Below, one piece after another: positions 5,014 to 57,310 of a DNA stretch of 64,000 nt; the first letter of the stretch is position 1; each line of letters opens with the position of its first letter. The notes under the pieces were generated by a model that saw only the letters and a program-made list of their open reading frames with translations, was not told the origin of the DNA and did not search any database. Both the position numbers and the translations under genes were made by a program. This DNA is from Heterodontus francisci (Eukaryota), in NCBI RefSeq assembly GCF_036365525.1, contig NC_090395.1:61331805-61395804 (forward strand), given 5' to 3'.

Positions 5014-6198
5014 TAGGCCACATATAGACCTGGTTGGGGAAGTGACAGCGGCATTAGGCCCTTTGAATATGCAAATACGGGTTCTAACATCTGTTTCAGG
5101 CATGGGCTCCAGATGACTTTTTTTGCTCAAAACAATATGGTGAATGGCACACTCCAGCGCGTGTTTCCTGTCTGCTATATTGGAGGCTTAGGCACCCGTT
5201 TAGCGCCAGGAAAAACATCAGGTGCCATCTAATTTCTCGGCCAAACTTTCATTGTGCTACTTTAGTTTAATTTGCAGCAAAGCCCTGAATCACTGTACAA
5301 CTACCTTCCCTGCATTTTAAAGGAGGCATTTTATGAGCTGCACAAAACAATCTTTCAGGGAGCTTCGTTTGAACCAAAGGTGGTACTTTCTCATGGCTCT
5401 TTGAAAGTGAGATACTTATCGAATAAACAAAAGCTGGATTTTAAACCTTTTTTTAAAAAATGAGGAATATACTTCCTTTCTGCGAAATTACTTATCGGCA
5501 GGACATATGAAAACAGGATAAAGTCATGACCGTACAGGAAAAGTAAACACTGGATTAAGTATTCTGTGGAAGCATAAGGAAGCCTTTGAAGGTCTGTTCT
5601 TCTGCAGTGCATACTTTATAACCTGTTCAATACTTCTGAGAAATGATCCAGTCACAAAGAGATATCCAAAAGACCAAGGTCTTTTACCTAAAAAAGCCCG
5701 TTAACTTTTTATGCTCATGAAGATTGTAGAATCAAAGAATGTTTGAAATGCCAACTTTGCTGGTGTTCTTGGGTTTCAATTGTGTGTTGTAAAAGCTTCT
5801 TCACAATGAGCTATAGCTGCCTCCTCCAAGATTATATTGTCCTTCAGGTATAATGAGAACTCGGATGTCGAAAAAAATGATCTGTAGTATGATGAAGCAA
5901 AGAGTTTTTCTTATCTAGCATAGTACATTTCATCAACAGAGAACTCCAGCACAGTATGAATTTGGAATATCAGAGTTAATGGTGCAAACTGACCAAAAAG
6001 TCAGTAATTACGGACCAAGAACGGTTACACATTCTTCACAGAACTTGCACAGTTGCAACAAATTATAAATTGTAACAGTGCATTTTATACATTTCATTAT
6101 ACTAATTAGAGACTGTTACTAGGTGAAGGTTTTACAAAATAAAGTGACGCTCACCTGAATCAGATATCTGAAAAATAAGGGCCTGCATGTCATGGAGG

Positions 6199-6759: not shown

Positions 6760-6992
6760 ATTTATATAGCATCTTCAATGCAGTTAAGTGTTCTGAAGTG
6801 CTTCACAACAGGGTAATCAGCCAAAAATTGGCACTGAGAGTAAAAAGGAGACATTAGGACAAGTGACCAAAAGCTTGGTCAAAGAGGTAGATTTTAAGAA
6901 GAGTTTTAAAAGAGAAAAGTGGAGAGATGGAGAGATTTAGGGAGGAAATACCAGACTTTAATGTTGAGATGGCTGAAGACATGACCATCAGT
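6760..6992 (-). mobile_element. L2 LINE 3' fragment
   Basis: Tail atttatatagc and the motif gaccaaaagcttggtcaaagaggtag shared with 18240 and 31120. Confidence 0.65.
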
Positions 6993-8821: not shown

Positions 8822-9055
8822 TCTGGTTGTTGCCCGTGCCACGTGATAGCGAAGCGAGGAATAGGGAGAGAGAGGAGTTGAACACGTGGCTGCAGGGATG
8901 GTGCAGGAGGGAGGGTTTTGGTTTCCTGGATAACTGGGGCTCTTTCTGGGGTAGGTGGGACCTCTACAAACAGGATGGTCTTCACCTGAACCAGAGGGGT
9001 ACCAATATCCTGGGGGGGGAGATTTTCTAGTGCTCTTCGGGGGGGTTTAAACTAA
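8822..9055 (+). pseudogene. CR1 ORF1 C-terminus (SGNH esterase-like)
   Basis: LLPVPR...LNTWLQGWCRREGFGFLDNWGSFWGRWDLYKQDGLHLN, with an apparent frameshift in the G-run at about 9012-9019. Confidence 0.85.
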
Positions 9056-11947
9056 TTCAGCAGGGGGATGGGAACCTAAATTGTAGTGCCAGTGGACAGG
9101 ATGTTGAGAGTATTGAGGTCAGGGATAAGGTTACAAGGACGCAAGAGGGCACTGGCAAGCAAGAACCTGGTTTAAAGTGTGTCTACTTCAACGCCAGGAG
9201 CATCCAGAATAAGGTGGGTGAGCTTGCAGCATGGGTTGGTACCTGGGATCTCGATGTAGTGGCCATTTCGGAGACATGGGTAGATCAGGGGCAGGAATGG
9301 ATGTTGCAGGTTCCGGGATTTAGATGTTTCAGTAAGAACAGAGAAGATGGTAAAAGAGGGGGGGGGGGGGGTGTGGCATTGTTAATCAAGGAGAGTATTA
9401 CAGCGACAGAAAGGACGTTTGAGGACTCGTCTACTGAGGTAGTATGGGCCGAGGTTAGAAACAGGAGAGGTGAGGTCACCCTGTTGGGAGTCTTTTATAG
9501 ACCTCCAAATAGTTCCAGAGATGTAGAGGAAAGGATAGCGAAGATGATTCTCGACAGGAGCGAGAGTAACAGGGTAGTTGTTATGGGGGATTTTAACTTT
9601 CCAAATATCGACTGGAAATACTATAGTTCGAGTACTTTAGATGGGTCAGTTTTTGTCCAGTGTGTGCAGGAGGGTTTTCTGACACAGTATGTAGACAGGC
9701 CAACCAGGGGCGATGCCACATTGGATTTGGTACTGGGTAATGAACCCGGCCAGGTGTTAGATTTAGATGTAGGTGAGCACTTTGGTGATAGTGATCACAA
9801 TTCGGTTAGGTTTACCTTAGCGATGGGCAGGGACAGGTATATACCGCAGGGCAAGAATTATAGCTGGGGGAAAGGAAATTATGATGCGATTAGGCAAGAT
9901 TTAGGATGCGTAGGATGGGGAAGGAAACTGCAGGGGATGGGAACAATCGAAATGTGGAGCTTATTCAAAGAGCAGCTACTGCGTGTCCTTGATAAGTATG
10001 TACCTGTGAGGCAGGGAGGAAGTTGTCGAGCGAGGGAGGGAGCCGTGGTTTACTAAAGAAGTTGAAGCGCTTGTCAAGAGGAAGAAGAAGGCTTTTGTTA
10101 GGATGAGACGTGAAGGCTCAGTTAGGGCGCTTGAGAGTTACAAGCTAGCCAGGAAGGATCTAAAGGGAGAGCTAAGAAGAGCAAGGAGAGGACACGAGAA
10201 GTCATTGGCGGATAGGATCAGGGAAAACCCTAAGGCTTTCTATAGGTATATCAGGAATAAAAGAATGACTAGAGTTAGATTAGGGCCAATGAAGGATAGT
10301 AGTGGGAAGTTGTGTGTGGAATCAGAGGAGATAGGGGAAGTGTTAAATGAATATTTTGCGTCAGTATTTACAGTAGAGAAAGAAAATGTTGTCGAGGAGA
10401 ATACTGAGATTCAGGCTACTAGGCGAGATGGGATTGAGGTTCACAAGGAGGAGGTGTTATCAATTTTGGAAAGTGTGAAAATAGATAAGTCCCCTGGGCC
10501 AGATGGGATTTATCCTAGGATTCTCTGGGAAGCTAGGGAGGAGATTGCAGAGCCTTTGTCCTTGATCTTTATGGCGTCATCGTCGACAGGAATAGTGCCG
10601 GAAGACTGGAGGATAGCAAATGTTGTCCCCTTGTTCAAGAAGGGGAGTAGAGACAGCCCTGGTAATTATAGACCTGTGAGCCTTACTTCGGTTGTGGGTA
10701 AAATGTTGGAAAAGGTTATAAGAGACAGGATGTATAATCATCTTGAAAAGAATAAGTTCATTAGCGATAGTCAGCACGGTTTTGTGACGGGTAGGTCGTG
10801 CCTCACAAACCTTATTGAGTTTTTCGAGAAGGTGACCAAACAGGTGGATGAGGGTAAAGCAGTGGATGTGGTGTATATGGATTTCAGTAAGGCGTTTGAT
10901 AAAGTTCCCCATGGTAGGCTATTGCAGAAAATACGGAAGTATGGGATTGAAGGTGATTTAGAGCTTTGGATCAGAAATTGGCTAGCTGAAAGAAGACAGA
11001 GGGTGGTGGTTGATGGCAAATGTTCATCCTGGAGTTTAGTTACTAGTGGTGTACCGTAAGGATCTGTTTTGGGGCCACTGCTGTTTGTCATTTTTATAAA
11101 TGACCTGGAAGAGGGTGTAGAAGGGTGGGTTAGTAAATTTGCGGATGACACTAAGGTCGGTGGAGTTGTGGATAGTGCCGAAGGATGTTGTAGGGTACAG
11201 AGGGACATAGATAGGCTGCAGAGCTGGGCAGAGACATGGCAAATGGAGTTTAATGCGGAAAAGTGCGAGGTGATTCACTTTGGAAGGAGTAACAGGAATG
11301 CAGTGTACTGGGCTAATGGGAAGATTCTTGGTAGTGTAGATGAACAGAGAGATCTTGGTGTCCAGGTGCATAAATCCCTGAAGGTTGCTACCCAGGTTAA
11401 TAGGGCTGTTAAGAAGGCATATGGTGTGTTAGCTTTTATTAGTAGGGGGATCGAGTTTCGGAGCCACGATGTCATGCTGCAGCTGTACAAAACTCTGGTG
11501 AGACCGCACCTGGAGTATTGTGTGCAGTTCTGGTCACCGCATTATAGGAAGGATGTGGAAGCTATGGAAAGGGTGCAGAGGAGATTTACTAGGATGTTGC
11601 CTGGTATGGAGGGAAGGTCTTATGAGGAAAGGCTGAGGGACTTGAGGTTGTTTTCGTTGGAGAGAAGGAGGAGGAGAGGTGACTTAATAGAGACATACAA
11701 GATAATCAGAGGGTTAGATAGGGTGGATAGTGAGAGTCTTTTTCCTTGGATGGTGATGGCAAACACGAGGGGACATAGCTTTAAGTTGAGGGGTGATAGA
11801 TATAGGACAGATGTCAGAGGTAGTTTCTTTACTCAGAGAGTAGTAAAGGCGTGGAACGCCCTGCCTGCAAAAGTAGTAGACTCGCCAACTTTAAGGGCAT
11901 TTAAGTGGTCATTGGATAGACATATGGATGAAAATGGAATAGTGTAG
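9056..11947 (+). pseudogene. CR1 ORF2 (AP endonuclease + reverse transcriptase), two disablements
   Basis: ORFs 9214-10056, 10103-11059 and 11069-11947 are collinear parts of one ORF2. Frameshift at about 10033-10040 (agggaggg duplication) and a TAA at 11057-11059 replacing Q of GVPQGS. Confidence 0.92.
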
Positions 11948-13281
11948 GTCAGATGGTTTCACAGGTCGGCGCAACATCGAGGGCCAAAGGGCCTGTACTG
12001 CGCTGTAATGTTCTAATTCTAAGTTCCATATTCAGACAAGGTCATGTAAATACAGAAGTTTTGGTTTCTGAAAGAAACCTAAGGGATCAGCCACTGTAGG
12101 CCTGGGATGTGATTTTACTCAATGCTCAATTATCTTAAGCAATCTTATCAGACTGAAACTGAATGATATCTGCCAAGTTCAGAGGCCCGCGGAGCTCCAA
12201 AATAAGCTACAGGCACCAGTTTAAAATGTTAAACTAAATGGTGTTGATGGCCTCTAATAAAAAGACTTTAATGGCAATTTGTAACTGGAGTTGTGGAAAG
12301 CTAATGACCCAGACAAGACTGAAACTGAAAATTAGGAAGGCCTTTAAATTTAAACGAAGAGTGTTGGTGGAAGAAGGGCAGGAATTTTTGAGCGGATCCA
12401 GAACTTTAGACCAGGGATCTGCTCACATTGCTCTTCTTTTGGGTTCTCTGCCCTCATTTGCTGTCAGAGAGAGATGCACCCAGCTAGTGTTTACTGCAGC
12501 AATGCAAATGTGCAGATTCATATTGCATGGAGTCATCCCTCCTCAAGTCTGTCGTTTGTACCCTTCCCTTTACTCATGCAAACTACTCTAGGATTAAAGT
12601 AACAATTTTTCTGTTGGTCTTAGAGACAAGGGGTAACTGGTTTCTTAAAGAAGAACTGCATGACTATCGTCCTTCAAAAGCTTCAGGTAGCTGTAATTTT
12701 TGTTTGCCTAGGGCAACCTTGAAAAAATTCTCGAACCAGTGAGAGTTTAAGCTTCATTTTGCGGATTCCTAAGGAAGTGCATTTCCAGTAAGAAAACTTT
12801 GGAAAAGTGTTCAAAGGAATGTGTCAATATTAATTTATCAGCAGCGTTATCTGAGTGAAATAAAAATAAAAGCTTTTGATATACTTTACATTGCACAGTA
12901 CTCCAGTAGTAAAAGAACTCCCAGCGTTACAATGTTACCAGTTATATAATGCATATTTTCAATTCCAGTCATTCCTATCCATAATAACCCTTCAATTAAG
13001 GAACAGGTTTACTCTCCCTTACATCAGGTCAACATCACCGGTCAATAACGTGAACTGGAACCAGCAACTCAAACTCAGAAATGGTTTCAGAACAAGGCTC
13101 TTGTGATCCACCTCCTCTTTACTTGTGCCCCTTAGCAGATATGATTTCTCATATTTTTGGGATCTGTCTTCACAGACCTTTGGATTTGGGATGTTGCTGG
13201 AGCTACATATAGGCCTGTCAGCAGCAAAGCCATGGTGCTCACTCCTGACCTCTTAGAAAGCTGCCCACGAAGATCTAGTGA

Positions 13282-15481: not shown

Positions 15482-16103
15482 ATGGATGTCAAGTTTGTTC
15501 ACGCCCTAATAACATTAGTCTCTATTGTACAGTGTACAAATGGCTAGCCTGACTACGGTGGGATACCAGTTTTATTTAACAACGAAGAAGGAGATCCCAC
15601 GGTGTTGTCACTCAGTGGAAGAATCACTTCTGACTACTTCAGATACTTTGGTATTGAAGATTATCCTTTAGAATGTGACTGTCTTATCCATTGGCCCACT
15701 GCAATGTTTTGTGATAACAGGGCACTGCTGTATGTACCATTGATGTTGCCATTTAGAAGCCAGTATCTGTACATCCAAGGCAATTGCATCCAGCACCTTC
15801 CTGAAGGGGGTTTCAAGAACACGACTGCCCTAAAATGGATGATCTTGGACAGAAACAACATTAGTAGTAAGAATATTGGTAAAGACGTGTTTTGTAGTCT
15901 TAACCAACTTGAAAATCTGTACATGAATTACAATAACTTGATAGAGGTACCAGCACAACTACCTCGCAGCTTAAAACAGCTGAGACTGGCACACAATAGA
16001 TTTAAAAAGCTCTCCCAAGAACCATTTGAAAACCTAGAGAATTTAGTGATGTTACTGCTTCATGGCAATCAACTGACAACAATCAATGGCGGTGATATGA
16101 AAG
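15482..16103 (+). CDS. SLRP pseudogene coding exon 1 (signal peptide, Cys cap, LRR1-5), with in-frame TAG at 15545-15547
   Basis: Acceptor tttctcatttgcag ends at 15421. ATG 15482 (another in-frame ATG at 15467) gives MDVKFVHALITLVSIVQCTNG*PDYGGIP..., in frame with ORF 15602-16156. LRRs QYLYIQGN, KWMILDRN, ENLYMNYN, KQLRLAHN, VMLLLHGN. Donor AAG|gtgaaa after 16103. Confidence 0.88.
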
Positions 16104-16339
16104 GTGAAATTAATTTGTTTAATATTAATTTATCACAGAGTTTACTTCACTCTTAATAAAATGTGTAGGTCATTCTCATCACAAGTAAATGGACTTTTGC
16201 AACAAAAAAAAAGCTCTCAATTGAAATAGACTCTCATCAAAAATTGACTCTCCCATTCTCATTGATTAACTAAAATGAATTGGTTAAGCAATCTATTTTA
16301 AATAGAGTGCAACAACAAAAACAACTTGTATTTATAGAG

Positions 16340-21215: not shown

Positions 21216-22236
21216 TTCTTTCATTTCTTCCTACTCTAGTGGCACTGAGGTTTGCAGCATTCCCGTTGTTGCCCAACTGATATTGGGTAACCAAGGAGCA
21301 GAACTTCTGATCTTCTTGGGCTGTGTAGTTTATTACCACATTTCGTGATCAATATACATAGAGCCATGGGGAACAAGATGCTTGATTGACATTTCTAAAG
21401 CAAAGCACATGATTTCACTATTTCAAGGGAAGACAACAAGATAAGTAAACTCCACCAATGGTATGCCTCATTTTTTTTTTAAACTTTAAAGTCATCTGTA
21501 GAATCACTTGTTCTTTTAAAGGCAATTAGATTGGGGATCCCTCAATGGCTTACAGAGTTTATCTATTGAATGATGAGCCTTAGAAACAAAGAAGGCCCCA
21601 AGTTCATTTACTGGTCTGTGCTGAGTTAGATCATCTCAGGTGCAATAGTAAGGACACTATAATTGGCTTCACAGCTACTGGAAAAGAAGTGGGACATTGT
21701 CCAGGATTCCCACCCAGATAACAATCCAGCAAGCCTTGATGGAAATGCATGTGAAGACAGAAATTGATTCATATGTGTTGTCCTCTCTGTTTAAATGACC
21801 TAAAAAAAAAACTTACTGTCAATATCCATATATGAATAATAACTATTTGAGGTACCATGAGGTGCCCGACACTTATGGGACTGTATCCAACAAGGAGAAA
21901 ACACCTTCATGTCAGGAGTGGAGGAGAAAAAAAAAATAAGAGAAAAGATGCTTTTTTCATAGGACATGAAAATGTTCTAGTTACAAGTTATGTAGCTTAC
22001 ATAAAGATGAATAGATGTTAAAAGCTCCAGAGAAGAAAGTTCAATGTTATTGTAACTATGACTGACTGAGGTGATTTTCCAGCAGAAGTCTTCACCTATA
22101 TTTTCAGCCTTTACATTTATTCACAACTGCCTTGATTCCATTATGTTTGAAGTCTATCAGATGACTGAAGTAAGATAAATGGAGCAATACGTTCAATTCT
22201 GAATAGTAACTCATATTTCCCTTTATACCATCACAG

Positions 22237-22551
22237 GATTGAAGTCTCTTATTCACCTGGATTTAAGTTATCAATTGACTGTGTTCCCCAAGAATCTTCC
22301 AGTTACAATCCAGCAACTCTACTGCACCAACAATTTTTTCGAAACGCTTACAGAAGATTATTTTGCACAGTTTCATAGACTCCTTTACCTGCGGTTGAGT
22401 CATAATAAATTTACCATCAAGGGTCTAGCACCAAATAGTTTCAACATCTCCACCCTGATTGAACTGGGCTTGTCCTACAACAATTTGACCTCCATTCCAC
22501 ATGTCCATAAAAACCTCCGATATCACTGATTTGATTGGCTTCCATATAGAG
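22237..22551 (+). CDS. SLRP pseudogene coding exon 2 (LRR6-10), 3' end disrupted by a micro-inversion
   Basis: Acceptor tttccctttataccatcacag ends at 22236, and phase 1 matches exon 1 (G+GA=Gly). Reads LKSLIHLDLSY-QL...LYLRLSHN...IELGLSYNNL...KNLRY. Inverting 22525-22550 restores LYMEANQIS followed by G|ataaga (degenerate gtaaga donor). Confidence 0.88.
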
Positions 22552-22961
22552 ATAAGAAACTTTTATATGTTGCAAAACCCCTTTTTCTGGGAATTTTCTT
22601 GGGCCTTCTCCTGCACCATCACCATAATTTTGGAAGAAGTTTAGCAAAAACTCTGTTGCCTGTCCCCAGTACATTAAATGTACAAATCCTCATTCTTGTC
22701 TTTAGAATCCTGCACAATCTCATCCCAATTTATTTTTGCAACCTCATAATCTGTCCTGGACCTGATGGACATCTTGATGACCAAGGTGGCAAGATTTCCT
22801 ACCTTGATCCTATTTTCTGCAATCTTCCCCACATTCCTCTGCCTCTCCACTTCCATTTTGACCTTTAAAAACCTTCCCAAAACCATTTTTATTCAACAAG
22901 CTTTCAGATGTCTCCCTCCATTGCTCAGTGACCATTTCCTTACTTTCTGTAGAGCACCCAA

Positions 22962-23215
22962 TAGGGAATTCAGGAGAAACTTCTTTATCCAGACAGTGTT
23001 AGCTTGTGGAACTTGCTACTGCAAGGCGTAGTTGAGGTGACTAGTATAGATGCATTTAAGGCGAAACTAGATAAACGCATTAAGGGGAAAGGAATCGTAG
23101 TATAAGTTGATGGGGTTAGATGAAGAAGGTTGGGAGCAGGCTCATGTGGACCGTAAACACTGGCATCATGGACCTGTTGGGCCAAGTAGCCTGTTCACTG
23201 TGCTGTAAGTACTAC
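22962..23215 (+). mobile_element. CR1 3' end fragment
   Basis: EFRRNFFIQ..W, gcatttaaggcgaaactagat and a gggcc...cctgtt...ctgtgctgta terminus. Confidence 0.75.
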
Positions 23216-23368
23216 ATAATACCTTGGTTCATATATATATATATATATATATATGAACCAAGGTATTATGTAGTACTTACAGCACAGTGAACAGGCTACT
23301 TGGCCCAACAGGTCCATGATGCCAGTGTTTACGGTCCACATGAGCCTGCTCCCAACCTTCTTCATCTA
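23117..23368. repeat. Perfect 252-bp palindrome centred on (AT)12
   Basis: 23117-23230 is the exact reverse complement of 23255-23368, and the central 23231-23254 AT run is self-complementary. Confidence 0.95.
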
Positions 23369-33012: not shown

Positions 33013-33164
33013 AGTTCAATGTAACCAGTTTCTGTCGCAAAGTAAGCCCAGTGGATTACTCCCAGTTGAGGATTCTCCGGTTGGATGGGAACAAACTAAC
33101 CTCCAGCCAAATTCCCAGTGACTGAATGTGGTGTTTAAGAGCAATTACTGAACTAATTGTGTAG
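33013..33164 (+). CDS. SLRP pseudogene terminal coding exon (ear repeat and last LRR), with in-frame TGA at 33123-33125
   Basis: Acceptor ttctttcacccag ends at 33012. Translation (E)[48 protein letters not shown] is a typical class II SLRP C-terminus. Too short to appear in the ORF track. Confidence 0.9.
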
Positions 33165-43411: not shown

Positions 43412-43606
43412 TAAAAGCAAAATACTGCGGATGCTGGAAATCTGAAACAAAAACAAGAAATGCTGGATTCACTCAGCAGGTCTGGCAGCATCTGTGGAAA
43501 GAGAAGCAGAGTTCCGAAGAAGGGTCACTGACCCGAAACGTTAACTCTGCTTCTCTTTCCACAGATGCTGCCAGACCTGCTGAGTGAATCCAGCATTTCT
43601 TGTTTT
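43412..43606. mobile_element. 195-bp Penelope mini-insertion forming a perfect hairpin
   Basis: 14-bp TSD ggctacagttaatg at 43398-43411 and 43607-43620. 64-bp perfect inverted arms 43450-43513 and 43543-43606. Confidence 0.92.
43510..43546 (+). ncRNA. Minimal type I hammerhead-ribozyme-like motif
   Basis: AGTT-CCGAAGA-A-GGGTC act GACCC-GAAAC-GTT-AACT. Palindromic AACGTT helix III as described for Penelope hammerheads; the core has C in place of the usual U4. Confidence 0.65.
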
Positions 43607-45504
43607 GGCTACAGTTAATGGCTCAGTACAAAGAGGAGGAAACTCAGTCCTTTCTTTAACTATCAATTTACTTTATTCACGTTGTTGTACAATGTAAGAA
43701 TAATGCTTATACACCTGGTTAGACAAAAGCATGCAACTCAAACTGGGTTATACAGTTAATAACAAAGCTAGCTAGAATTGATAAGCACACCCACTAGGTT
43801 CCTCTGACCTTTCCCTGACCTAGTCACAGAAAACAAAGGATAATACCCAAAAAAAGGGGAGAGCTGACGCTGGCCAGGCGTTCCGTTCCCTCTCTCTTTT
43901 ACATCGTCGCCGCGTTGCTCACGCAGGGTCTTCCACTTCCGCGATGGTTGGTCTCCAGAGTTTCTCGCTGGCTCTATGCCTGAGATTCTCCATACTTATT
44001 CTCTTTCTTATCTCTTCAAAACTGTACTGTCTCTTTCCGGTTGGTTTAGGCCTGCTCACCTCGTTCGTATCTTCTCCTTATTGTCCCAGGCCCGAAGACC
44101 CCGGTATCACACCGTGTCCAAATAAGGCTCTATTCCTGTGATCTCTCCCTTGTCTTTCACATAAATTAATTAGTTCAAACTGGTTTTTACCAGCACAGGC
44201 CAGTGTCTGAGCTCGGGTTACTTTGGTTCATGAACTATCCAGCAATTTGTAACAGACTCTGTACTTCTTGCAGCCCCTGGCCAACAAGGCCTGTTTCTGT
44301 GCTGTAAAACTCTAACTCTAAGTTGCAAGAGATATTGATAAGCTGGTGGAATAGATAGGCAGAAATAAGTCAGTTTGTTACACTTAGCTTGGATGACTGA
44401 AGAGCCGAGGGATTTGAAGGTTTAAGTTTGATATTAAAAGTGACATCAACTTGACATGATTTTTAAAAGTGAGTTAATGGAATATTGCTTTTATGGAAAG
44501 TGATATATAATAGCAAAGTTGAGATGTACTGAGGAACCTATACAAAACCTTAGTGAAACAAGAGTTAAACTCCACTTTACAGAAAGGATGCTGAGATAAT
44601 AGAGTCTAGTGAAGATTAACAAGGCTGTTGTCTAGAATGAGAAAATAGACATTAAGAATGACTTGGGTGGCGGGGGATAGAATTGAGGCTTTTATTGTTG
44701 GGACAGATGGTATTAAAGGATGGTTGGATAGTAATGTTTCAGATTATGAAGGGATGGGACAAGATAGCTATAAACAGTTTCCAGTGGTCAAGGGGACATG
44801 GGTGTAAGATTAAACCTGAGAGGTTAGAACTCTGTCCCTAATAAGTTCCAATGGAAAGTTACAAACTCTTGCTGAAGTAGATGTCTGGAACAGTCATCAA
44901 ATTATGAAAATAGTGACTTATTTATTGGTAGCCCAGAACAGTTTTTCAAATGCTGGAATTTCCTTCCGGGCTTCTGCTGTTGTAACTTTAAAAACCCATT
45001 TCAATGGGGGTTTCTGCTGATTGTGGACAGTAGCTCCAGGGAACTTAATGCTGCAAGTCTTTTTGTGCTCCGAGCAACCAATATGACTAACTTTGTGAGA
45101 CACTTGTCTCCAGCTGAGAATCTTGCTTCTCAAAATAAAATCTGTTTACCGACCAGTAACTGTCTGAATGGTAGATGTCTTTAAATCTTCTTGTTAGAAG
45201 GTTAGAAGTTCAAGGACCCCAGCTGCTGCTTGTTGTTTCAACTCACAACTGGGTCGCAGAAGGGAAGATGTCAGATTGACTTTCCCTGTTGAATAACTCC
45301 TGGTAAGGATCCATCAAATATCCACTTTGGAGGCTGCAACAGAGAAATCCATGTTCCAGACTTCTTAACTTCTGTCAACAGACAGCAATAACAGACTAAG
45401 TAATAACTAAGGAATGTGGTCAGAAAATAAAATGTCCAAAATTGCCACAGGTATATTTTGCAATGTTATAAAGTGAAAATGGTTCCAAGTATTGACTATA
45501 AATG

Positions 45505-49674: not shown

Positions 49675-50042
49675 AGACCACCTGCAGTGTCATATAGCAA
49701 GTTCCTATTGTAATGTAAAGACATGTAACATCTAATTTGTGCACAACAAGGTCCCACAAACAGCAATAACCAGATAATCTGCAATATTAATGGACAAACA
49801 TAATATTCCATTATCCACTAGTAGTGTCAACCTTGGCTCTGTTCGGGGTCACAAGTATTGGCCAGGATCAGGTCTTCTTCATAAAGTGTCACAGGAACTT
49901 GATAGCCATGGGAGAGGACTGATACATCTTGGTTTAACATCTCATCTGAAAGACAGCACCTCCGACAGTGCAGCACTCCCTCGGTACTGCACTGGAGATG
50001 GGGTCTGAACTTGTGACTCCGAACTGAGCCAAGGTTGACACT
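49675..50042 (-). mobile_element. Deu-domain-type SINE with an internal inverted duplication
   Basis: cacaacaaggtcccacaaacagcaa...gacagcacctccgacagtgcagcactccctcggtactgcactgg...actgagcc..ggttgacac. Confidence 0.7.
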
Positions 50043-50085
50043 ACTAGTGGATAGCGGAATATTATGTTTGTCCATTAATATCGCA
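49780..50085. repeat. 77-bp inverted repeat (5 mismatches by manual count)
   Basis: 49780-49856 vs 50009-50085. This explains the twin ORFs starting MDKHNIPLSTSSVNLGSVR on opposite strands. Confidence 0.9.
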
Positions 50086-54324: not shown

Positions 54325-54949
54325 CCTATTAGAATTGTCTTTTCTGGGTGCCAGTGCTGCTTTAATTTCTCCTTTTTTTTCATCCCAGTAATCATGTGGT
54401 TCTTTGGGGAAGCTTTTCTTCAGTTTTCCCATTGCCATGACTGCCTAGGGTCTTTGTTCCTGCTGAGGTAATTGTTTTTCAGAAGAGCCAGTAGTGGGTG
54501 GGACTATCCTGAACACACTCTCAGTGCTTTGCTGAGTCATGCAAAGGCTTTTGCCTTCAGGGGATGGGTGTTTCCTTTTTCCTCTGACTATGGAGAAGGA
54601 TTCTTTGTTAATTCCCCCTTTGTTCTCTGGGACATTCCTGCCTGCAGGCATGTGTGCAGGCTTGACTGCACTCTCCTGTGGCACTTTGACTAGGTGAGGC
54701 ATCACACTCATGGTTTCTGTGCCCTCTAGTGATCTCTCTTTGTTTCTGCAACTCTGGTGGGGTGCTTCTTGTGTCTGCATTTACATTGGAGGATGTGGGG
54801 TCTAACTTTTCACATTTTCCGGGGTTGGCTTACCGGGCAGTACGGGTTCTCATCAGGGATTCCTCCCGGACTTCCTTTAACCTGCCCTCTTGGTCACTTT
54901 TTCCCCTTCTCTTTCTAAACTTTTGCCAGCCGTGTGCCTGCCTGTCCTC

Positions 54950-57310
54950 CTTTGTTCTCAGTTGGTGTCCCTTACAGTTCACCAACCCTCTGCTGGAGGG
55001 TCCTCCTAACACCCGGACAGGACTTAGGGGTGCAGGTTTCACTGTAGGTTGAGGTTTCCCCTCAACCTGGCAACTCCTGCAGTACTCCACCACATCTTTG
55101 TAGAGTTTTGACCAGTCAAACTGCTGTCTTATGTGGGCTTTGGCCTTTTGTATACCGACATCTACAGCCTCTGTAGTCTCATGGGCCCTTCTTAATATTT
55201 CTCCTTGGTACCTCTGTGGCACCACTAACTGGTGAAGTACTGTCCACTCCTTGCCCTCAGGTCTGTGAGGAGAACTCCATTTCCTCATCATTCTTTAAAT
55301 AGTAGCAGTCAGGGACTCCCTCTGCTTCACTTTCAGACTGGGCAGCCTGTGCTAACTCTTGCAATACTGGGTCGGCTCGCTGAGCCTCAGCTAGGGAGAA
55401 TCCATTTAATTCATTCCCTAGCTCTCCTAACTTTCCAAAGAAAGTTTTGGACAGGCAGACCTCATGGTCATCTGCCTGCAATGCCAATGCAGTCTCCTCT
55501 GGGGGAGCTGGTTTAATCATGGCTTGATCCACTACACATTCAGGGAAACTGCAGGGGACCGTCTCCTGCCACTACCCTATCTCTCTGACCTCCTGCGTTC
55601 TTTCTTTCACTCCTGGGGGGGGGGCTACTCTTCACCCCCACCAGATCATTACTAGGGTCAATCCCTACAGTCACTGATCCCGAAACTAAGTCGCTCTCCA
55701 GGTGCACTCGGTATACAGGTACAGGCATACACTGCCCTCCAATACCATGCACCATCATTTTGGTGTTCATTGCACTCTCTGGGGGAAAGGTCAGGCCTTT
55801 TCCCAGTATAAGGGATCTAGTGGCCCCTGTGTCCCTAAGAATTACTATGGGCTTGCTTGTCCCACTTGAGGGGTATGGGGTTACTTTCCCTTCAGACACA
55901 AAACCCTGATAACCTTCAGGAATCCTATTAATTAATTCCTGCACTGGCCGTAGTAAGCTTCCTGGGTTGCACTCTTACTGCAGTTAAGGTCACAGCTTGT
56001 TCTGCTGTGCTTTGCATCAGGTCCCCGTCTTCACTGAGTGGGTGTACCCTGATTAACCCTACTGGTTTCCCCTTTAGTTTCCAGCAGTCGGCTGTTAAAT
56101 GCCCTGCCTTATAACAATGGAAGCACACAGGTCTTCGGGTCTCGCTCTTGCTCAGAGTACCTTTCTTTTTGGCTGGAAGTGGACCCCCTGTGTCTCCTGC
56201 TTTCCTTCCTCTCTCAGGACTGCCTGGGCAGAGATCACCTTCCCACCCTTTGTCCTTTTCGGATTTGTGGGGGTGATTAGGAAAGGTTCTCCCCTGGGAA
56301 ATCAACTTATAAATTAAAGCAAACTCATCAGCCAGAACAGCCGCTTGCCGGGCTCCCTGAACCTGCTGCTGCTCTACATGGGTCTTTATTGAGAATGGGA
56401 GAGAGTTTTTAAATTCTTCTAACAGAATTACTTCTCTGAGAGTTTCATAGCTGAGTTGTATTTTTAAAGCCCTCAGCCACTGGTCATAAACCAGCTGCTT
56501 ACTTCTTTCAAACTCCAGATAAGTTTGATTAGCTTACTTTTTGAGGGTTCTAAAGTTTTGGAGGTCGGCTTCGGGTGCTAATTCATATGCCCCGAGGATA
56601 GCATTTTTGGTCAGTTCATAATTTGATGAACTCTCATCTGGCAACAAGGAATAAACCTCATGGGCTTTTCTAGTTATCTTGCGTTGTATTAAAAGTGACC
56701 ATTTTAGCTGCCTTGCCAGTTTCTCAAAAGACACAAAAAAAACGCTTCCACATCTTCCTCATTGAATTTTGAAATTAATTGAGCGAGTGTTAGCAATTTT
56801 GTACCCAGCCCTGAATTCTGCTCCTCCATATTGGCCATGCTTTCACTGGGGTTACTCTGTTGCCTCCCTAGTTAACTCAAACCGCCTCAACTCTCTGTCT
56901 TCGCATTCTTTCTGGAATATTCTTTCTCTCCCTCTCTCTCTCTCTCTCATTCTCTCTCCTGCCTCTCTCTTTCTCTCTCCTGTCTTTCTGTTTCTTCACG
57001 TTCCTTCTGGAAGACTCTCTCTTTCTCCCTCTCTCTTTCCTTAAATTCAAGTTTCCTCTGTTCCAATTGTATCTTTGCTAACAATACCCAGTCGGATTCT
57101 GCTTCTAACCCTGTTTCTGCGTCTTCAGATTCAAGGGAAAAATGGTTGACCACTAGCCTTAGGAGTTCAGACTTCCTGGCCTTGCCACATACTGTGATTC
57201 CCACACTGCATAGCCATTTTTATTAGCTCCTCCATAGATAGTGCTTTTAACTTATCCCAAGTTACTTCACCCTGACTTGAGAGCTACTCACTTCAGTTGC
57301 AGGCATGTTA
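54950..57310 (-). pseudogene. Gypsy gag-protease-integrase (N-terminal part) polyprotein remnant
   Basis: Collinear broken ORFs 56947-57204, 56534-56734, 55928-56305, 55540-55944, 55257-55532 and 54830-55291. Confidence 0.85.

Follow-up and report, generated by a model that had tools for sequence, protein, structure and literature searches.

The 64,000-base window, that is, the whole stretch of Heterodontus francisci DNA that was analysed, carries on its plus strand three exons of a lumican-like (lumL) gene remnant. Coding exon 1 (15482..16103), which comprises the signal peptide, the N-terminal cysteine cap and the first leucine-rich repeats (LRRs), was located by tblastn with the basking shark protein P0003 (77% over 223 residues) and is followed by a phase-1 GT donor at 16104. 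The remnant of exon 2 (22237..22551) retains an intact AG acceptor (22235-22236), and exon 3 (33013-33164), coding for the C-terminal cap, has a phase-1 acceptor at which AG TTC follows a pyrimidine tract and cccag. Translated exon 1 matches P0001, a protein named lumican-like of H. francisci, with 100% identity. This public model lists the pseudogene as protein-coding, and its pieces at 996-1238, 5278-5406, 6803-6886 and 12624-12686 bypass a TAG codon at 15545.

In a tree of 25 proteins (four rows trimmed, none omitted) the window's model was placed in a four-row shark clade, which together with the chimaera formed a chondrichthyan clade of five rows; the latter nested in a clade of 13 rows that also contained coelacanth, lungfish and the zgc:113307-type proteins of ray-finned fish (support 100/99 for all three clades). 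This 13-row LumL clade was separate from lumican and fibromodulin. The chimaera protein P0005 is XP_007897807, an accession labelled LumL in PMC11917481. Two neighbours share the contig (C25): approximately 177 kb upstream a fibromodulin-clade gene, and approximately 59 kb downstream of exon 3 a gene of the Omd/Kera/Prelp clade. The downstream neighbour is presumably prelp, judging by its proline/lysine-rich start; a protein atlas search with it returned generic LRR matches only. Both neighbours are in line with cluster D, given in PMC11917481 as fmod, dcn2, lumL and prelp. The locus is best regarded as an orthologous lumL remnant. It shares with LumL, a class II small leucine-rich proteoglycan as treated in PMC11917481 and PMC6293640, the tree position, the orthology to chimaera LumL and the location adjacent to fmod, but the horn-shark copy is broken. 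The exon-2 DNA had one genomic match. Three protein matches at 75-86% all correspond to this locus, and the next best reached 45% among the 111 of 255 candidates scored; within that scope lumL appears to be single-copy, and no second, intact gene was detected in the genome.

Several repeats lie in the same window. A perfect palindrome of 252 bases (23117-23368; 126-base arms, 100%) is centred on an AT run. The arm belongs to a high-copy repeat, and the remaining copies that were scored are 78-85% alike, so that the palindrome is either an artefact or a duplication that folded back locally; the contig of run X1 described below ends near 22985, before the palindrome. Two further long inverted repeats, at 43442-43614 (72-base arms at 96%, spacer of 29 bases) and 49780-50085 (77-base arms at 94%, spacer of 152 bases), may represent older template switches or repeat copies facing each other. 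What we take to be a LINE-like element (9031-11947) has frames resembling endonuclease and reverse transcriptase that are interrupted by frameshifts, and decayed frames on the minus strand (54445-57219) presumably derive from an element resembling an LTR retrotransposon.

The end of exon 2 is disrupted. The plus-strand frame, read from 22237, ends in KNLRYH at an in-frame TGA (22527-22529), whereas YLYMEANQISD is encoded on the minus strand, in a frame that spans 22441-22689 and has its first Met at 22674. A previous sequence-only reading had drawn attention to both frames and had proposed that a micro-inversion turned around the missing LRR; both frames were seen again, and flipping 22525-22550 did restore RYLYMEANQIS. 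The 26-base inverted spacer (22525..22550), whose minus strand together with the adjacent arm encodes YLYMEANQIS and which gives the plus strand its TGA, lies between a left arm TATC (22521..22524) and a right arm GATA (22551..22554). The two arms are complementary over exactly 4 bases, as that reading had stated. Since TATC and GATA flank the segment, several breakpoint pairs give the identical sequence, namely the five from 22521/22554 to 22525/22550. The background frequency of perfect 4-base inverted repeats enclosing 26 bases is 0.5% in the window (332 of 63,966 positions).

Comparison with other cartilaginous fishes bore out the expectation that the repeat would be found in forward orientation in related sharks. 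It is forward in all four orthologues examined: the basking shark (P0003) and Mustelus (P0004) share YLYMEANQINE, the chimaera (P0005) has YLYIEANRIDE and the white shark (P0094) YLYVEANQINE. In three of them it continues directly into exon-3 sequence, the Mustelus model ending at this point. At the nucleotide level, a 1137-base contig from organism B (runs X6 and X7, one sample) matched the plus strand over 22213-22520, the minus strand over 22529-22554 (25 of 26 bases, one mismatch) and again the plus strand over 22710-22744, at most 3 bases off the earlier register. The horn-shark segment thus matches the reverse complement of its organism B counterpart at the same place, between colinear plus-strand pieces. 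The opposite-strand match, directly after the colinear exon, is not attributable to chance: 25 of 26 matching bases are expected with a probability of about 1e-13 per position, or about 2e-11 over 200 positions, and the 26 bases exceed the length of about 15 bases below which chance matches arise according to PMC8755829 and PMC5453318. The 26-base inversion relative to other sharks is real and confirmed. A search for short predicted exon-2 proteins in closer relatives yielded one candidate, which was not accepted.

The inverted form was also recovered from reads. A contig assembled separately from the reads of run X1 covers 22150-22750 with 0 differences and carries the inversion unchanged, and no other X1 contig was placed on the site; X1 possibly represents the source sample of the assembly, so that this result tests the assembly and not the state of the population, and contigs drop rare variants. 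All sampled words of 22000-23000 were found in three of the four DNA runs of the X1 sample, and a fraction of 0.94 in the fourth. Run X10, from another sample, placed five reads, all less than 90% alike, on a repeat near 21560-21660, and run X11 placed none; these two runs leave the inversion site uncovered.

The right arm of the repeat coincides with the splice junction, GATA comprising the final exon base and a dead donor, and the window continues after the final base of exon 2 with ATAAGA (from 22552). The phase-1 ending deduced previously for the restored exon agrees with exon 3, whose AG TTC start implies a phase-1 intron and a Glu codon composed of G+AG. Because of the protein junction in the orthologues, the phase of exon 3 and the remaining AAGA, which is still compatible with a donor, the ancestral donor was probably GTAAGA, with GT at the position of the present AT. 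Minor-class introns of the AT-AC type have their own consensus, and this reading was rejected here on the sequence ATAAGA and the acceptor AG. Within 22440-23000, a GT with 4/7 consensus matches occurs only at 22786.

Splicing into exon 2 was seen in one contig of run X5, a run guessed, not recorded, to be RNA. The contig (depth 3.4) joins 21460 to 22237, skipping 776 bases with GT..AG ends, and ends at 22397, short of the inversion. Its upstream part corresponds to a cryptic exon in intron 1 (21240..21460, plus strand) with stops in all three frames, the 5' edge of which was set by an AG at 21238-21239 and a second X5 contig; the 39-base 5' end of the latter had no match in the window or the genome. 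The spliced contig may hint that some transcription persists.

The gene carries at least three disabling lesions, the inversion among them. Besides the TGA at 22527 with the dead donor, a premature TAG (15545..15547) is located where the signal peptide ends, and a premature TGA (33123..33125) takes the place of a conserved Trp ahead of the final Cys. Two lesser lesions accompany these three clear ones. The window departs from the motif Cx3CxCx9C, described for the N-terminal cap in PMC6293640, in that a Tyr (15662..15664) replaces the first Cys, which is kept in the other aligned orthologues, and a 3-base deletion (22269..22270) has removed an LRR Asn present as LSYNQL in P0003 and P0004. The lost first capping Cys is a lesion of decay, and the locus is a remnant and not a working LumL. 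Judged from its sequence, with disabling lesions in a once-functional gene and no intact copy detected elsewhere, the locus would classify as a unitary pseudogene, and the inverted feature itself is predicted to be functionless. At least two other stop codons are present, so that lumL may already have been dead when the inversion arose; the chance that it was the first of the lesions would be roughly 1 in 3 to 1 in 4.

The extent of neutral decay was estimated from the two stop codons. Set against about 44 stop-gain sites, they correspond to 0.045 substitutions per site since the death of the gene (95% range 0.005-0.16), or to 0.023 when one of the two stops is taken as the initial disabling change. 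The exon-2 piece differs from organism B at 38 positions, 32 of which are listed; these were assigned by hand as 19.5 silent and 12.5 residue-changing differences, equivalent to a dN/dS of about 0.14. This low ratio suggests that most of the shared history passed under selection and that decay began late in the horn-shark line, which would leave little neutral time for a coincidental change of the donor.

In broad agreement with the sequence-only reading, which had one replication template switch both invert the codons and convert the donor, we consider it probable that a single strand-switching event both flipped the spacer and overwrote the splice donor with the left arm. The ancestral flanks would have been TATC and GGTA, matching at three of four bases. 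The new strand, growing from left to right, would have halted once TATC was made and annealed to GGTA of the complementary strand. Synthesis would then have run backwards over the spacer and the left arm before returning to its template just beyond the donor. The expected product is an inverted spacer within a perfect TATC/GATA repeat, with an in-frame TGA, a GT-to-AT change of the donor and unchanged length, and a switch starting from TATC/GGTA arms would yield exactly the present sequence. The geometry of the site matches type 3-1-2-4 as described in PMC5453318, in which a perfect inverted repeat flanks an inverted spacer. No hairpin was predicted at the inversion site (minimum energy -1.1 kcal/mol, z +0.97), and this lack of structural support counts against the switch.

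One alternative, two separate mutations in an already dead gene, would combine a G-to-A change of the donor with a clean inversion between short repeats, in either order. The two other stops and several further changes indicate relaxed selection, pure in-place inversion (1-3-2-4) is the commonest type in PMC5453318 (45%), and G-to-A is a common transition that, if earlier, might have favoured the inversion by perfecting the repeat. Yet an independent hit at this donor base has a chance of only about 1.5-3% (d 0.023-0.045, with an assumed transition share of about two thirds at G), or somewhat more if it preceded and promoted the inversion, and a single event requires no coincidence. Because the sole donor change required is the very one that perfects the repeat, the single event is favoured, and two separate mutations are regarded as unlikely, though by no means negligible. 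Another question is what triggered the event. Repair of a double-strand break by microhomology-mediated synthesis overlaps with the favoured explanation and differs from it in replacing the fork slip as trigger. Such repair is proposed in PMC8755829 for microinversions of 17-33 bases with short or imperfect arms, arms of 3-4 bases being considered there insufficient for the polymerase to jump twice, and the horn-shark inversion, with 26 bases and 4-base arms, resembles these; the same paper, however, acknowledges the known ability of template switching to perfect imperfect repeats, as reconstructed here. We regard break repair as quite possible, but not as the expected trigger. Sequence alone does not separate fork slip from break repair, and replication would be a plausible trigger.

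An artefact of assembly or polishing could be suspected from the perfect 252-base palindrome about 560 bases downstream, as such fold-backs can be artefactual, and no second individual covers the site (runs X10 and X11). Against this, the X1 contig spans the site with 0 differences, which argues against the assembly error that the sequence-only reading had named as its possible undoing, X1 being possibly the same sample; no competing X1 contig was found there, and the sampled words of the region recur in the four DNA runs at the fractions given above. An artefact is accordingly thought very improbable. Equally improbable is a living gene whose shortened protein ends in KNLRYH, as P0001 implies. 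That model is annotated with 452 residues, and one contig of the guessed-RNA run X5 was spliced into exon 2, but P0001 enters exon 1 after the TAG at 15545 from four upstream pieces that are unrelated to the orthologues and hence provide no homologous signal peptide. Moreover, the spliced X5 contig derives from the cryptic exon, in which every frame is interrupted by stops, and the capping Cys and the LRR Asn have been lost.

The remnant also bears on the history of lumL in sharks. In PMC11917481, the loss of LumL in elasmobranchs was inferred from four chondrichthyans and a ray transcriptome; Carcharodon is unmentioned in the text and supplement searched, and Heterodontus in the text. The search with P0003 gave three elasmobranch-named clusters, covering four species, among the 120 of 157 matches listed. 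The lumL models of two lamniform sharks, the basking (P0003) and the white shark (P0094), are uninterrupted, both being automatic models. The un-inverted Mustelus model P0004, likewise automatic, keeps the Asn and the Cys lost in the horn shark, lacks the signal peptide and exon 3, and looks truncated. The whole lamniform models and the differing damage in horn shark and Mustelus suggest separate losses, contrary to the loss inferred in PMC11917481, and point to losses in sharks that would have been repeated, separate and later. That the inversion was the founding hit, removing frame and donor in one step in one of several independent shark lumL losses, is doubtful. A literature search for a horn-shark lumL pseudogene found no paper, subscription journals being mostly outside its coverage.

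If losses were several, they would replace the one inferred so far, and the role of lumL in the sharks that retain it would become testable; this history of loss is a better lead than the inversion itself. The latter nevertheless makes a clean teaching case: with the help of the protein code and the splice rule, the earlier sequence can be reconstructed one base at a time, and so can the direction in which copying ran. It is also a marker nearly free of homoplasy by which the death of lumL among bullhead sharks can be dated.

The type of mutation is already known from apes and yeast genes and is rare at this length; it involves no new mechanism or function. Among the 794 filtered human-chimpanzee events of PMC5453318, type 3-1-2-4, which leaves the spacer inverted between the arms of an inverted repeat, makes up 23% together with its mirror 1-3-4-2, next to 45% pure inversions, and the conversion of near-perfect into perfect repeats by template-switch events is described in that text. 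The horn-shark site shares with these types the inverted spacer within a perfect inverted repeat and, probably, the origin of a cluster of differences in one event. Its copied piece of 28-31 bases exceeds the 14-base filter of that paper; it differs in lying in a former coding exon of a shark, with an arm overlapping a splice donor whose state before the event had to be inferred. With the human-chimpanzee microinversions presented in PMC8755829 it has in common a length (26 bases) within the range of 17-33 bases and 4-base arms directly at the edges. None of the 59 definite cases reported there overlaps coding sequence, whereas the horn-shark inversion lies in former coding sequence. The template-switch changes in yeast coding genes, as described in PMC8604942, are alike in that arm homogenisation and spacer inversion took place within protein-coding DNA; they led to amino-acid replacements in 39 genes, whereas the outcome in horn-shark lumL was a stop codon and a lost splice donor.
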